Shown here piece by piece: positions 22,487-60,524 of a stretch of 64,000 bases of DNA. The first letter of the stretch is position 1; every line of letters begins with the position of its first letter. The stretch lies in NCBI GenBank assembly GCA_902490325.1, contig CABUDJ010000001.1, positions 6,937 to 70,936 on the forward strand, written 5' to 3'. This stretch comes from an uncultured Collinsella sp. (GTDB lineage Bacteria > Actinomycetota > Coriobacteriia > Coriobacteriales > Coriobacteriaceae). Under the pieces are notes generated by a model that saw nothing but the letters and a program-made list of their open reading frames with translations, searched no databases and was not told the origin of the DNA. The translations under genes and the position numbers were made by a program.

Positions 22487-23389
22487 TTGGATAAAAGAGA
22501 AAACACTGCGTCGCATGTTTTGGCTCGATTTCGCGGATTCATTCAGGCGGCGGCGACGCTCGTCACCAACATTCACCTGCCAAACTTTGCCAAAGGCGGC
22601 ATCTATCAGGGCGCGGGAAAAACAGTCTGCGTACCTGGACTTAATTGCTATTCGTGCCCCGCGGCATCGGGTGCGTGCCCCATCGGGTCGTTCCAGTCGG
22701 TGGTAGGTTCATCCAAGTTCAACTTTTCTTACTATGTTACCGGTACGCTCATTTTGCTCGGCGTGCTGCTGGGACGCTTTGTATGCGGCTTTCTGTGCCC
22801 GTTTGGCTGGCTGCAGGAGCTGCTTCATAAGATTCCCGGCAAAAAGCTTTCGACAAAAAAGCTCAAGCCGCTCACGTACATCAAGTACGTCGTGCTGCTG
22901 TTTGCCGTGGTGCTGCTACCCGTCTTGGTGGTTAACGACGTGGGCATGGGAGACCCGTTCTTTTGTAAGTACATCTGTCCGCAGGGCGTGCTCGAGGGCG
23001 CCATTCCGCTGGCCATTGCCAATGCCGGCATTCGATCTGCGTTGGGACATCTCTTTACTTGGAAACTTGCCGTTCTCATTGCCGTGGTAGTGCTGAGCGT
23101 TTTGTTCTACCGCCCCTTCTGCAAATGGATTTGTCCACTCGGCGCATTCTATGCGCTCATGAATAAGGTGTCCTTGTTGGGGATTCAGGTCGACGCGTGC
23201 AAATGTGTCTCGTGCGGCAAGTGCTCAAAGGTTTGTCAGATGGACGTTGATGTGGTCCGCGCACCCAATCATGCCGAATGCATCCGGTGCGGAAAGTGCA
23301 TCGGGGCCTGTCCCGTCGATGCCATTAGCTATCGCTATGGCCTGGATGTGTCGGCGGAAAAGCTCCCCTTGACCGCCGATAAAAAGTAA
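22487..23389 (+). CDS. membrane-bound 4Fe-4S binding protein (NapH/polyferredoxin-like)
   Basis: Several TM helices. Cys motifs are CYSCPAASGACP, CKYICP, CKWICP, CVSCGKCSKVC and CIRCGKCIGACP. The start is uncertain: TTG at 22487 with GGAG upstream was chosen, and the longest ORF starts at ATG 22400. Confidence 0.75.
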   Translation: MDKRENTASHVLARFRGFIQAAATLVTNIHLPNFAKGGIYQGAGKTVCVPGLNCYSCPAASGACPIGSFQSVVGSSKFNFSYYVTGTLILLGVLLGRFVCGFLCPFGWLQELLHKIPGKKLSTKKLKPLTYIKYVVLLFAVVLLPVLVVNDVGMGDPFFCKYICPQGVLEGAIPLAIANAGIRSALGHLFTWKLAVLIAVVVLSVLFYRPFCKWICPLGAFYALMNKVSLLGIQVDACKCVSCGKCSKVCQMDVDVVRAPNHAECIRCGKCIGACPVDAISYRYGLDVSAEKLPLTADKK

Positions 23390-35400: not shown

Positions 35401-35463
35401 CTAGTCATCGGGGGCGTTCTTTAACGACTGGTCATTTAAGGACGTCCCCAACGACTATGTAGC

Positions 35464-35535
35464 AAAAACATGTACACCAGCATCCAAAGATGTCGAAAAA
35501 TGTCGACTTTGGATGCTGGTGTACATGTTTGGGTC
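35464..35535 (+). repeat. 72-nt hairpin repeat, copy A (perfect 21-bp stem); probable bidirectional terminator
   Basis: CATGTACACCAGCATCCAAAG - ATGTCGAAAAATGTCGA - CTTTGGATGCTGGTGTACATG. The same 72-mer, with 3 mismatches, recurs at 36543-36614 in the same orientation. Confidence 0.8.
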
Positions 35536-35551
35536 CGACGGGGGAGCGGGC

Positions 35552-36450: not shown

Positions 36451-36542
36451 AGCCCTCTCGGAAACCTTTCCAGAGGCGTCAAACAGCCATAATCCAAAGG
36501 TCTCCTCAAACAATTAGCCGGCCAAGAGCGTCCATGACTACC

Positions 36543-36614
36543 AAAAAGCTGTACGCCAGCATCCAAAGATGTCGAAAAATGTCGACTTTGGATGCTGGTG
36601 TACATGTTTGGGTC
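36543..36614 (+). repeat. 72-nt hairpin repeat, copy B
   Basis: It differs from copy A at 3 positions, all in the left arm. It lies just downstream of the glutaredoxin gene stop. Confidence 0.8.
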
Positions 36615-36651
36615 GTATGGGTTGGGGCCCTGGACGGACAGAGCGTGCGTA

Positions 36652-46667: not shown

Positions 46668-46743
46668 CCGGCAGTTGGGGACAGTCCCTTTCTGCCGGCA
46701 CAAAAGGAACGTCCCTAACTGCCGGTTGCCTAACTGCCGGTTG
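46668..46743. repeat. cluster of CTGCCGG-core motifs, including a tandem 15-mer, in a divergent intergenic region
   Basis: CCTAACTGCCGGTTG occurs twice in tandem (46714-46728 and 46729-46743). An inverted partial copy CCGGCAGTT is at 46668-46676, and CTGCCGG is at 46692-46698. The GGGACAGTCCC palindrome core is at 46677-46690. Confidence 0.6.
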
Positions 46744-50460: not shown

Positions 50461-51159
50461 TTACAGGTCGCGTGCTCGATAGACCTTGGTGCTGACGGTG
50501 CAGCTGATTGCACATAGCACGAGGGCCAGCACGGCGATGCCTGCACACAGACAGCCCAGGACGGCAGGATCGGGATTCGCTCCGGCAATCGACATGAGCC
50601 AGTTGCTGATGGGGTTGGAGGAGCTCAGCGTGGCCATGGCAAGGCATCCGAGCATGGCAAACAGGCCAACGGATAGGCGCAGTGCCTCCATGTGTCCAAA
50701 GCGAAAGAACAGCGGCTGCGCCAAAAACACCATCATGAGGGAGATGAGCATTGATGCTGCTGAGGCTATTGCAATCTCAAAGACAATCTGTCCCGTCAAC
50801 GGGATACCCGCGCTGTTGAAGAGCGGGAAGGAGACGATGCTCAGAAGCGCGGCGGCGCACGCCATGACAGCCGAGAAGACAATGATGCTCAGGTAGCGTG
50901 CGCAGATGATGTCTTTACGCGAGAGAGACAGCGTTGCGCGATAGCGCTCCCAACCGTTTTGATTGTCGAAGCCGGCCAGCGAGCTCATGACCATGATGGG
51001 TGACATGGCACTGACCGCGCAGGCGCCAGCGCTCATGCCGGAATCGCCGTCCGATGCGTTGGCAAGGGTCAGCACGACGAATATGAACAAGCCGACACCC
51101 GCAATGCTTGGGGCAAGCGAGCGAACGATGGCGAGCTCGGACATAAAGGCGCGTTTCAT
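50461..51159 (-). CDS. ABC-2 type transporter permease
   Basis: Six-TM hydrophobic profile. The start overlaps the stop of the upstream ATPase gene. Confidence 0.75.
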   Translation of the reverse strand: MKRAFMSELAIVRSLAPSIAGVGLFIFVVLTLANASDGDSGMSAGACAVSAMSPIMVMSSLAGFDNQNGWERYRATLSLSRKDIICARYLSIIVFSAVMACAAALLSIVSFPLFNSAGIPLTGQIVFEIAIASAASMLISLMMVFLAQPLFFRFGHMEALRLSVGLFAMLGCLAMATLSSSNPISNWLMSIAGANPDPAVLGCLCAGIAVLALVLCAISCTVSTKVYRARDL

Positions 51160-52037
51160 TTCGAAGCCCCTTTCAGCGTGAGACGAAGATAGTCATCAAT
51201 GGTTGCCCGATCGCAGGGAATCTCGGGAAAGGCCTCGAGCGTTTCGCGACGGTTGGGCACGAGCACGTCCACGCTATAGGCGTGGTGGGCGGCACGGGCA
51301 CCTTCGACGCAAGCCATAAGCTCGGCGGCCTGTGCTTGGGTGCAGTGGGCGATGCCGGCGCGGTCGGTAATGTCCTCGCGCGGCAGATCAAACACAATCG
51401 AACCGTTATCGATGCAGATGATGCGGTCGGCGGCACGATCGAGGTCGGACGTAATGTGGCTCGAGAGCAGCACGCTGTGCTGGCCGTCGGCGACAAAGGC
51501 AAGCAGCTCATCGAGCAGCTCCTCGCGTGCCATGGGATCGAGGCCCGCGGTGGCTTCGTCCAAAACGAGCAGCTTGGCCTTGTGGCTGAGCGCGCAGGCA
51601 AGTTGCAGCTTCATGCCCATGCCGCGGGAGAGGTCCTTGACCTTTGTCTTGGGGTCGAGGACAAATCGGTCGATGAGGCTGGCGAAGGCGTCGTGGCTCC
51701 AGGTGGGGTACGCCGGGCTTACGAGTGCCTCAACTTCGGTCACCTTGAGTGTGGAAGGGAAGGGGCACGTGTCCAGGACAAGGCCGACGCGGGAGTGCAG
51801 GTGGCGTTGCGACTCATCGGGCGCGTCGGCGCCACAGCGCTGCCCAAACAGGTGCACCTCGCCGGCATCGAGCTTTATAAGCCCGAGCGCGGCGCGAATG
51901 GTCGTTGTCTTGCCGGCGCCGTTTGCGCCTACAAAGCCAACGATCTGGCCGGGCTCCACAGCGAGCGTGACGTCGCGTAGTGAAAAGCGGTCGCTCACAC
52001 GGCGTGAGATACCTTTGAGTTCTAGCAAGTTTTGCAT
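51156..52037 (-). CDS. ABC transporter ATP-binding protein
   Basis: Walker A GANGAGKTT, signature LSRGMGMKLQL and Walker B LLVLDEAT. Start chosen at MQNLLELKG; the 448-aa track ORF is an upstream over-extension. Confidence 0.9.
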   Translation of the reverse strand: MQNLLELKGISRRVSDRFSLRDVTLAVEPGQIVGFVGANGAGKTTTIRAALGLIKLDAGEVHLFGQRCGADAPDESQRHLHSRVGLVLDTCPFPSTLKVTEVEALVSPAYPTWSHDAFASLIDRFVLDPKTKVKDLSRGMGMKLQLACALSHKAKLLVLDEATAGLDPMAREELLDELLAFVADGQHSVLLSSHITSDLDRAADRIICIDNGSIVFDLPREDITDRAGIAHCTQAQAAELMACVEGARAAHHAYSVDVLVPNRRETLEAFPEIPCDRATIDDYLRLTLKGASK

Positions 52038-52060
52038 GGTATAGCCTTTCTTGCAGATGG

Positions 52061-52441
52061 CTACTGCATGGTTTCGGGGGCTACCAGGTCGAGCATCTCG
52101 TGCAGCTTGTCGCGCGTGACGCCCAGAGTTTCGGCTTGGCTTGCCGCTTTCGCAAGTAGCTCTTCGATATGGCAGAGCTGGTTTTCGCGCAAGAGCTCCT
52201 GGTTGCCCTCGGCGACAAAACAGCCCTTGCCCTGCACGGTGCAGATAAACCCGAGCTGCTCCAGGTCGGCGTAGGCGCGCTTGGTGGTGATGACGCTCAC
52301 GCCCAGGTCGCTCGCGAGTGCACGGATGCTGGGGAGTTTGGCTCCCGCAGCGAGCGTGCCCGAAAGGATCTGAGCTTTGACCTGCGAGGATATCTGCTCG
52401 TAGATGGGCTTGTCGCTTGAATTGGATAGGATGATGTCCAC
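52061..52441 (-). CDS. GntR family (YtrA-like, short) transcriptional regulator
   Basis: PIYEQISSQVKAQILSG...LPSIRALASDLGVSVITTKRAYADLE. GTG start with RBS AAGGAG. First gene of the gntR - ABC ATPase - permease operon. Confidence 0.85.
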   Translation of the reverse strand: MDIILSNSSDKPIYEQISSQVKAQILSGTLAAGAKLPSIRALASDLGVSVITTKRAYADLEQLGFICTVQGKGCFVAEGNQELLRENQLCHIEELLAKAASQAETLGVTRDKLHEMLDLVAPETMQ

Positions 52442-52567
52442 AGCGGCTCCTTAGCTGTTGGGCTACACGTGTATATAACCGGTAAGCACAGTATATATAC
52501 ACTATGCACAGTTATGCAAGAGCTAAATGTGGAATAGACCATCGGCGCCGCGCTTGCTCCAAAACAA

Positions 52568-52862
52568 TCTCAATCTGTAACATCTGGATCCGTTTTTGGT
52601 CGCCAGCTGTTACAGATTGAGATGTTATTTTCCCGCCTTCCTATTTGTCTCAATCTGTAACAGTAAGAGTCGATTTGCGCGGCTAGATGTTACAGAACGA
52701 GACATTGGCTGCCTGCCTTTCCGTTTATCTCGATTTGTAACAGCTAGACCCAATTTGGGCGGTCAGGTGTTACAGATTGAGATTGTGCCGGCGGACAAGT
52801 TCGTTTGTCTCAATCTGTAACATCTGGGTCCGTTTTGAGTCGTCTGCTGTTACAGATTGAGA
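52568..52862. repeat. array of eight 15-mers (TCTCAATCTGTAACA and its reverse complement) at an exact 40-nt phase with alternating orientation; equivalent to four ~80-nt hairpin units
   Basis: Forward copies start at 52568, 52648, 52728 and 52808. Reverse copies start at 52608, 52688, 52768 and 52848. Six copies are identical; the copies at 52688 and 52728 carry 2 mismatches each. All seven spacers are 25 nt. Confidence 0.9.
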
Positions 52863-53007
52863 CAGTCTGCTGCAGAATACTTTCGATAACTAGCCGTTCA
52901 CGTTCTGACTGATGAATTTGTCCTGATAGGCGCCCTAGAGCGAGATTTCGCGGCTACAATAGTACGGTTACATCGACGTAATGCACTTAATGCAAGAAAG
53001 GATCCGC

Positions 53008-54621
<1,614 letters not shown>

Positions 54622-60397: not shown

Positions 60398-60524
60398 GCG
60401 CTCTCAATTTCTAACATGCTATTTTGTGCTTATTTGCGCAGACGATGATACTCCTAATCGACTAGTCATTGGGGAAGGCGTGCGACAATGGTGGGCGTTG
60501 TGTTGTTCGCGCTAAGGAGTTGCC

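Follow-up and report, generated by a model that had tools for sequence, protein, structure and literature searches.

A phased array of alternating 15-mers between gntR and prfC in a Collinsella genome, probably one copy of a dispersed extragenic repeat family

The stretch of DNA analysed here (the window, 64,000 nucleotides of contig CABUDJ010000001.1 from an uncultured Collinsella sp.) contains an array of short inverted repeats at positions 52568-52862, in the divergent region between prfC and an operon that begins with the gene of a GntR-family regulator. It was found that this array is probably one copy of a Collinsella-specific interspersed extragenic repeat family, which is closest to the bacterial interspersed mosaic elements (BIMEs) and to tandem clusters of REPINs, the hairpin-forming doublets of repetitive extragenic palindromes (REPs). 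An earlier note on the same DNA had considered an operator or nucleoprotein scaffold, a chain of alternative RNA hairpins in a 5' leader, and a REP/BIME-like repeat, and had stated that the array matched no feature class. The third option was favoured by our results, because the unit is dispersed over dozens of unrelated intergenic sites; the statement about feature classes was too strong, given the closeness of the architecture to BIMEs and tandem REPIN clusters.

Eight copies of the 15-mer TCTCAATCTGTAACA were located, with strictly alternating orientation (+ - + - + - + -) and a phase of exactly 40 nt. The plus copies begin at 52568, 52648, 52728 and 52808, and the reverse complements at 52608, 52688, 52768 and 52848; six of the eight are exact, and those at 52688 and 52728 carry two mismatches each. 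A repeat search returned four 55-nt units (15 + 25 + 15) at spacings of 80, 80 and 80 nt, which are 73-91% identical to unit 1; it also listed 14 inverted-repeat pairings between arms. All coordinates and spacings in the earlier description (eight 15-mers, 40-nt period, four 80-nt units) were reproduced. The parts of the array are as follows.

52568-52862, no strand: whole array, four 80-nt units or eight 15-mers (repeat search, match count).
52568-52622, no strand: unit 1, TCTCAATCTGTAACA followed by the 25-nt loop TCTGGATCCGTTTTTGGTCGCCAGC and TGTTACAGATTGAGA; the reference copy.
52623-52647, no strand: linker 1 (25 nt), TGTTATTTTCCCGCCTTCCTATTTG, which fits the weak family linker consensus TTTTCCC...CCGTTTG.
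52648-52702, no strand: unit 2, whose second arm TGTTACAGAACGAGA has two mismatches (repeat search).
52703-52727, no strand: linker 2 (25 nt), CATTGGCTGCCTGCCTTTCCGTTTA.
52728-52782, no strand: unit 3, whose first arm TCTCGATTTGTAACA has two mismatches, including the A/G polymorphism seen throughout the family; the loop of this unit, GCTAGACCCAATTTGGGCGGTCAGG, is of a subtype present at unrelated sites too.
52783-52807, no strand: linker 3 (25 nt), TTGTGCCGGCGGACAAGTTCGTTTG.
52808-52862, no strand: unit 4, 91% identical to unit 1 (repeat search).

With up to three mismatches allowed, the 15-mer matched the window nine times against 0.77 expected, and none of 100 shuffled sequences reached nine, so a chance origin of the array was excluded. 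The ninth match, at 60402 with two mismatches, is solitary, has no partner and looks chance-like. Comparison of the spacers showed a resemblance between loops 1 and 4 (20/25) and between loops 2 and 3, and a relationship between linkers 1 and 2. Tandem Repeats Finder did not report the array at 52568-52862, because its spacers are too diverged.

The unit was not confined to the window. Scanning one genome per species (GTDB set) with the pattern TCTCRWTYTGTAACA-N23-27-TGTTACARAWYGAGA gave at least 119 matching stretches, almost all of them from Collinsella aerofaciens or uncultured Collinsella; a few were labelled as other taxa, and their flanks clustered with Collinsella loci. Among the matches listed, together with the window, 146 arrays with 391 units were counted. 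All 146 alternate + - + -, with a plus-to-minus spacing of 40 nt and a minus-to-plus spacing of 40 or 41 nt. Among the matches listed, arrays hold 1-8 units with a building block of 80/81 nt, and clustering of the 800-nt flanks gave 57 flank-pair classes, some of which are fragments of one site; the number of distinct intergenic sites among these matches is about 40-57. About 25 flank-pair classes were common to 2-9 species with differing unit numbers, and array sites were inherited at orthologous positions across Collinsella species. The earlier note had proposed to check copy number and unit number, and had held that a dispersed high-copy repeat would speak against a locus-specific element; the repeat was found spread over dozens of unrelated Collinsella intergenic sites with variable unit number, and its copy number and lack of gene association argue against an element particular to this locus.

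The 899,693-bp C. aerofaciens record NZ_OY725717.1 held 22 matching places. Over the 200 kb of it that were read in detail, the arrays were clumped, with none in the first 150 kb (dense operons) and four arrays plus two remnants in another 50 kb. By extrapolation, a genome would carry some tens of arrays and hundreds of 15-mers. This record (loci L133-L136) is labelled 'plasmid 6' of C. aerofaciens TSDC17.2-1.1 in PLSDB; it encodes recA, ftsK, ribosomal proteins, tRNA synthetases, secA and prfB, which indicates a chromosomal replicon. A plasmid origin of the repeat was rejected, as the only 'plasmid' match (PLSDB) was this mislabelled 0.9-Mb chromosomal replicon. Nine IMG/VR contigs contain the same kind of phased arrays, and phage records gave no match to the array pattern. 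A literature search found no description of this repeat in Collinsella or Coriobacteriia. At L133:2740-2794, a single-unit copy has a decayed second arm (TGTTATAGAACAAGA, four mismatches), and orthologous sites have one or two intact units, so that constraint may be weaker on solitary units than on arrays.

Conservation within the family was concentrated in the 15-mer, which carries 1.7-2.0 bits at 13 of its 15 positions, compared with about 0.0-0.4 bits in the spacers. Position 4 is an even A/G polymorphism (GATC or AATC) and position 3 is mostly C. Conservation continues weakly on both sides, with WTTG preceding the 15-mer on the outside and NN-TAG following it on the inside, and the middle of the loop is W-rich. 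Loop length was 25 nt in 369 of 372 cases, and linkers measured 25 nt (154), 26 nt (89) or 24 nt (8). When orthologous arrays were compared in register, the 15-mers were 94.5-96.7% identical and the spacers 83.5-86.4%; the flanking intergenic DNA of orthologous pairs showed 89.9% identity with 8% gap columns. These identities and lengths implied that the 15-mers and the spacer length are constrained, while the spacer sequence is free. Loops from unrelated sites were 42% identical and linkers 34-36%, compared with 25% for random sequence; all loops and most linkers are therefore derived from a single ancestral unit. Since certain subtypes of loop and linker are shared by unrelated sites, pieces longer than one unit have been copied between sites. 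About half of the 15-mers contain GATC (position 4 = G; in the window at 52731-52734) and the other half AATC, and loops bear a conserved CTAG/xTAG beside each arm throughout the family.

As a single strand, the array was predicted to fold strongly (RNA fold of -144 kcal/mol, z of -12; DNA fold with z of -10), and the partners of the arms were interchangeable, in agreement with the earlier proposal that each 15-mer can pair with either neighbour. Evidence for selection on this pairing was sought in an alignment of 131 units, one array per site. Paired cells amounted to 72.1% versus 74.9% in shuffles and the covariation score was 0.112 versus 0.143, with 500 of 500 shuffles reaching or exceeding the observed value in both cases. 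The 15-bp helix was 95% paired because both arms are conserved, nothing more, and 44% of the loop helix cells were paired. At every mirrored loop or linker position, Watson-Crick pairing was at or below the expectation from column composition. Arm positions 3 and 4 varied independently between the two arms of a unit (complementary at 0.53 versus 0.50 and 0.715 versus 0.723 expected), and A-C mismatches between arms occurred at random frequency. Thus the covariation check that had been proposed for the hairpins, run across homologous arrays, revealed no compensatory changes. An extended hairpin with covarying loops and linkers was ruled out, since pairing did not exceed the composition and shuffled expectations.

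One detail of the earlier description, that C52698 and G52732 would pair with each other across a linker, was correct as far as the pairing itself is concerned. Its significance was not borne out: the two bases occupy position 4 of the 15-mer, which is polymorphic (R/Y; GATC versus AATC) throughout the family, and complementarity across linkers in the family is 0.34 versus 0.50 by chance, so the detail carries no meaning. Rfam gave nothing in the array region in a permissive search (only sub-threshold microRNA noise, E of at least 1.4) or in the whole window at the gathering threshold. Taken together, the alignments demonstrated apparent selection on the 15-mer (about 19-24 bp with its flanks) and on the spacing, not on pairing; what seems to be kept is the sequence of the 15-mer and not a hairpin structure. 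Conservation of sequence and spacing without conservation of pairing points to recognition of DNA by a protein, and not to a hairpin of RNA or single-stranded DNA.

The surroundings of the array in the window are as follows.

52061-52441, minus strand: gene of the GntR-family regulator (YtrA-like, 126 aa), first gene of its operon (Pfam); a neighbour of the array, not a partner.
51156-52064: ABC ATPase of the gntR operon (Pfam).
50461-51159: ABC-2 permease of the gntR operon (Pfam).
53008-54621, plus strand: prfC, peptide chain release factor 3 (Pfam); likewise a neighbour, not a partner.
52863-53007, plus strand: intergenic block next to prfC; every orthologue, even the empty site described below, shares the conserved part that runs from CTGATGAATTTGTCCTGATAGG onward.
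52467-52503, no strand: the inverted boxes TGTATATA and TATATACA, not part of the repeat, in a block invariant among orthologues.

Nine array-selected loci, the window included, had 2, 3 or 4 units at the gntR-prfC site. Empty sites were absent among these pattern-selected loci, as expected from the selection, and the site was also sampled independently of arrays, through GntR homologues and their contigs. By this route, 13 contigs with 2 units and one contig (L145) with none were obtained. L145 encodes an identical GntR protein, its prfC DNA is 99.5% identical, and its 229-nt intergenic region lacks any 15-mer. Relative to the filled allele it differs by a 162-nt indel (2 x 81), which consists of 18 nt, the 135-nt array and 9 nt and is bounded in the filled allele by the imperfect 11-nt direct repeat CGGTCG(G/C)CGGC. 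The indel lies between two blocks kept in all alleles, one beside prfC and one beside gntR with the boxes TGTATATA/TATATACA. GntR homologues at 79-87% identity had other synteny and no arrays; they are uninformative as empty sites because the synteny differs. TGTATATAC-type palindromes were present upstream of array-less GntR homologues in L129 and L132 (other synteny) and in L131 (86% identity, no prfC upstream). Palindromes like TGTATATA/TATATACA were also seen upstream of the homologues in L143 and L144, where the synteny is again unrelated.

Because the block from CTGATGAATTTGTCCTGATAGG onward is kept in all orthologues including the empty site, the prfC promoter was placed downstream of the array, probably within 52863-53007. 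The boxes TGTATATA/TATATACA are the probable promoter/operator of the gntR operon, of the YtrA-type autoregulatory kind, and the array would most likely lie upstream of both promoters. A consensus scan for promoters and terminators over 52300-53100 gave nothing. Given the empty allele with an identical GntR and the separate, conserved TGTATATAC-type palindromes, it was concluded from these comparisons that the array would be dispensable at this locus and would not be the GntR operator. Some gntR-prfC alleles (L108:7220-7526, L095:3526-3832 and L037:7395-7661) have one linker lengthened by a 12-nt partial arm duplication (AAGAGATTGAGA), which makes the phase 52 nt instead of 40 nt; these are among the very few phase breaks of the family.

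All arrays at the loci examined were intergenic. At the 40 sites where both neighbours were called, the genes were in tandem (18), convergent (15) or divergent (7) orientation. The neighbours were unrelated to each other and included EF-Tu, isocitrate dehydrogenase, Nramp, glutamate synthase, phosphomethylpyrimidine kinase, GH1 glucosidases, LacI and DeoR regulators, and toxin-antitoxin genes. The median distance of arrays from stop codons was ∼69 nt, and that from start codons was mostly 86-240 nt, a pattern expected if promoter-damaging insertions had been removed. In at least 16 of 57 3'-facing arrays, a separate terminator-like hairpin stands between the gene and the array. Spacer polarity was mixed within arrays and showed no bias with respect to gene direction, which is consistent with flipping between inverted 15-mers and speaks against a mechanism tied to one strand.

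A second dispersed Collinsella repeat was noticed in the same intergenic regions. It is a terminator-like palindrome, AACCACCACAAAGG-(about 9 nt)-CCTTTGTGGTGGTTTT, with 333 half-site matches in 1.03 Mb (for example L006:3288-3327 and L006:3544-3600), and it adjoins arrays in L017, L032, L039, L043, L059, L063, L067, L068, L070, L074, L104 and L119. It often stands between the stop codon and the array, and sometimes flanks the array on both sides between convergent genes. The sequence of its stem is conserved across unrelated genes, which is unusual for terminators, and it resembles the subterminal hairpin (AACCACCCTTAAAAAGGGTGGTT) of the IS200 insertion sequence in L133.

Array-adjacent genes were inspected for a partner protein or mobilising enzyme. 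The proteins formed 65 clusters; 20 small or unannotated ones, and the products of genes located between two arrays, were scanned with Pfam/NCBIfam, and other proteins were judged by eye from their sequences. No transposase was found among the 20 scanned. Genes located between two arrays were a 364-aa open reading frame (ORF) without a family match, Nramp, an AAA ATPase, a lipoprotein-like ORF and a kinase/FHA pair. For the sole tnpA near an array, in L133, the IS200 model gave 155 bits and the model of REP-associated tyrosine transposases (RAYTs; cut-off 80) gave 35 bits; its product shares 82% identity with streptococcal IS200. According to published descriptions, RAYT genes always have their REPs on either side, and the lack of any in the ∼50 array neighbourhoods counts against a RAYT. 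The ends of nearby IS21 elements were rejected as a source of the 15-mer, since they showed no similarity to it.

The IS200 copy itself occupies L133:22700-23420 (NZ_OY725717.1 422700-423420; tnpA at 22883-23341), where other genomes have an array downstream of Nramp. The first 15-mer and one loop remain there (22700-22739); as half a unit was replaced, this IS200 was taken as an insertion into the array. Insertion sequences tend to target palindromic repeats, and this copy fits that tendency. The 364-aa ORF (L033:4917-6011; orthologues in L008, L045, L047, L060, L085, L110 and L116) has arrays on both sides in at least nine genomes and no Pfam/NCBIfam match; by eye only, its C-terminus is like a DUF559/Vsr-like endonuclease (...VDYFW...ELDGKGKY...VLRFTFDEL).

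If the array belongs to a dispersed repeat family as proposed, the 15-mer would be a recognition site on DNA for a sequence-specific protein encoded elsewhere in the genome, and this protein might be architectural or a mobilising enzyme of the transposase/recombinase type. With a spacing of 40-41 bp, which is about four helical turns, neighbouring sites of opposite orientation would all face the same side of the helix. Arrays would grow and shrink in 80-nt steps through slippage or unequal recombination between 15-mers of the same orientation, and spacers would flip through recombination between inverted 15-mers. The gntR-prfC array would then be a passenger in the non-conserved middle of the divergent region, with no specific regulatory link to GntR or prfC. 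Several observations weigh against this explanation. The strong long-term conservation of the 15-mer at orthologous sites could equally mean a host function and not a selfish element. No clear target-site duplication was seen, and the imperfect 11-nt repeat at the sole empty site fits an insertion or a microhomology deletion. Stems of 15 bp would still fold with one mismatch, so a hairpin form is not disproved by the lack of covariation at two variable positions. Of the 57 3'-facing arrays, 12 begin 35 nt or less after a stop codon; some copies so close to stop codons are probably transcribed, and an RNA role is possible there. No Y1 transposase or RAYT was found beside any array (tblastn with IS200 TnpA, 1.23 Mb of Collinsella DNA), and no mobilising enzyme or binding protein was found among the array-adjacent genes examined.

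A selfish replicator and an architectural role in the host are mutually compatible, and the host role is the main rival. It holds that the arrays are selected platforms for a Collinsella architectural or topological protein (nucleoid-associated, gyrase-like or a domain-boundary factor), with dispersal being secondary, and we consider it rather unlikely. E. coli BIMEs bind IHF and gyrase. Purifying selection on the 15-mers and on spacer length but not spacer sequence, together with the lack of hairpin covariation, would suit such a platform, as would recognition extending symmetrically past the 15-mer (WTTG outside, NN-TAG inside) at a phase of 40-41 bp. Arrays are also found in DNA that is probably not transcribed, past terminators or between divergent promoters, and their sites persist at orthologous positions across species; BIMEs have been reported to bind several proteins (PMC2817692). 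However, the gntR-prfC site is empty or holds 2-4 units in near-identical backgrounds, single units decay, the distribution is clumped with no array in 150 kb of core operons, and there is no candidate protein. This rival overlaps with the dispersed-family explanation instead of excluding it. The nucleoprotein scaffold of the earlier note is accordingly possible as a property of the whole family, but not as one of the gntR operon. A related suggestion, which we hold with considerable doubt, is a new kind of nucleoprotein element, in which the 15-mers, under purifying selection, would bind a protein that assembles head-to-head and tail-to-tail along one DNA face with a 40-bp pitch, either as a genus-specific chromosome-organising system or as a REPIN-like replicator with a non-Y1 mobilising enzyme; if true, it would be the first such system described in Actinomycetota.

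The remaining explanations fared worse. An element acting at the RNA level, with transcribed 55-nt hairpins in untranslated regions as mRNA stabilisers, processing sites or terminators, and with prfC or gntR leader structures in the window, was judged improbable in general and unlikely for the gntR-prfC copy in particular. The very strong predicted fold (z of -12) would agree with it, as would the many arrays that start 9-70 nt past a stop codon and the action of REPs at the mRNA level (PMC2817692). On the other hand, pairing fell below the shuffled expectation without covariation, no U-tract follows the hairpins and no terminator-like site appeared in the scan, at least 16 of the 57 3'-facing arrays are beyond their own terminator-like hairpin, 7 of 40 sites are divergent, spacers have no polarity bias relative to gene direction, and Rfam gave no match. 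In the window, the array lies between conserved promoter-proximal blocks at a site that can be empty. The alternative 5'-leader hairpins of the earlier note were weakened in the same way, by the missing covariation, the position between promoter-proximal blocks and the occurrence in all gene orientations. About as improbable is a conventional miniature inverted-repeat transposable element (MITE), a non-autonomous derivative of a DDE transposon whose terminal inverted repeats would be the 15-mers; it would depend on mobilisation in trans and create target-site duplications. Inverted 15-bp arms, intergenic dispersal, presence/absence polymorphism and the imperfect 11-nt direct repeat bounding the 162-nt indel would be expected of it. 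Yet no transposase gene with these ends was found in 1.23 Mb, the ends of nearby IS21 and IS200 are unrelated, and the flanks of the arrays are inverted (WTTG...CAAW), not direct; moreover, a MITE would decay uniformly whereas only the spacers decay here, the 55-nt unit is shorter than known MITEs, and arrays always hold whole numbers of phased units. The idea that the array serves the adjacent YtrA-type GntR repressor as a multi-site operator, for the control of the gntR-ABC operon, prfC or both, was considered very improbable. It was suggested by the position in a divergent control region and by the TGTWACA within the 15-mer, a palindrome of the GT-N-AC-like type. An operator should be confined to promoters of the regulon and be co-inherited with the regulator; instead, 15-mer arrays occur at dozens of unrelated sites beside unrelated genes, also between convergent genes, and the L145 genome with an identical GntR has none. 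In other taxa, the GntR homologues are accompanied by TGTATATAC-type palindromes but by no 15-mers, and in the window such palindromes stand independently of the array beside gntR (52467-52503). The link to the adjacent regulator made in the earlier note was not supported.

For the annotation of the window, these results mean that the array is not to be read as a regulatory element of gntR or prfC. Two other repeats were observed in the window. Two 83-nt copies with 92% identity (35460-35542 and 36539-36621) lie 1079 nt apart and apparently bracket ∼1 kb; both contain a long near-perfect palindrome (ACATGTACACCAGCATCCAAAG ... CTTTGGATGCTGGTGTACATGT). At 46714-46743, the 15-mer CCTAACTGCCGGTTG is perfectly duplicated in tandem, in intergenic DNA just upstream of an ORF starting at 46743.

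Collinsella, a prevalent genus of the human gut, comprises very many species-level clusters, and dozens of variable-number loci per genome make the repeat a ready marker for strain typing. Assembly breaks, as well as spurious CRISPR or 'structured RNA' predictions, are likely consequences of the family. Identification of the partner protein could uncover a new way of mobilisation that differs from the RAYT paradigm, or else an architectural protein of a new kind.

By architecture alone, the arrays are reminiscent of CRISPRs, in which a short conserved repeat alternates with variable spacers of fixed length. They differ in that the Collinsella repeats alternate in orientation and that the spacers are homologues of one another (42% versus 25% for random sequence) and vertically inherited; the neighbours of the gntR-prfC array are gntR, ABC transporter genes and prfC, no cas gene, and the array can be absent. 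The mycobacterial interspersed repetitive units (MIRUs) are 40-100 bp long, stand in tandem at many intergenic loci and vary in unit number from strain to strain; they are direct repeats, often inside operons, with small ORFs overlapping neighbouring genes. The Collinsella repeat is like them an actinobacterial interspersed tandem family with variable unit number, but MIRUs have no alternating inverted 15-mers. Plasmid centromeres (sopC, parC) and iterons occur once per replicon, beside their partner genes. They share with the present arrays a short specific site phased at whole helical turns, with sequence conserved and not structure, whereas the Collinsella arrays occupy dozens of chromosomal sites without an adjacent partner.

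The closest counterparts are BIMEs and REPINs. BIMEs of E. coli, Xanthomonas and other bacteria are clusters of REPs (also called palindromic units, PU), short conserved repeats that are regularly spaced in alternating orientation, and a REP is an imperfect palindrome with a GT(A/G)G head whose palindromy is kept by complementary mutations (PMC2817692). Like BIMEs, the Collinsella arrays are extragenic, dispersed, lineage-specific, regularly spaced and alternating, with repeat numbers that vary between strains and sites inherited at orthologous positions. In contrast to REPs, the 15-mer is not self-complementary (its TGTWACA part alone is) and no compensation between arms was observed. BIME linkers are a few conserved motif types, whereas the Collinsella spacers are free in sequence and fixed in length (25/25-26 nt). 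There are tens of arrays, compared with typically >100 REPs, and the extrapolated copy number of the 15-mer is at the low end for REPs; no RAYT was found beside the arrays, and Actinomycetota are outside the range of RAYTs and REPs described in PMC2817692. REPINs of Pseudomonas fluorescens SBW25 consist of two inverted REPs and a less conserved spacer, and form tandem clusters of up to five; no two of their spacers are identical, and the spacers keep the hairpin form (PMC3337134). Inverted conserved short sequences around a less conserved spacer, tandem clusters and long persistence in a lineage are common to both families. Unlike REPIN spacers, those of Collinsella do not keep hairpin complementarity, and their lengths are almost invariant instead of varying within a group; REPINs have a cognate, REPIN-flanked RAYT, and none was seen beside arrays at about 50 sites. 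Hence the family, as judged by its alignments, appears to fail two defining features of BIMEs and REPINs, namely a self-palindromic repeat with compensatory evolution and hairpin-forming spacers. It separates features that are confounded in classical REPs, and offers a clean system for the long-term maintenance of interspersed repeats.

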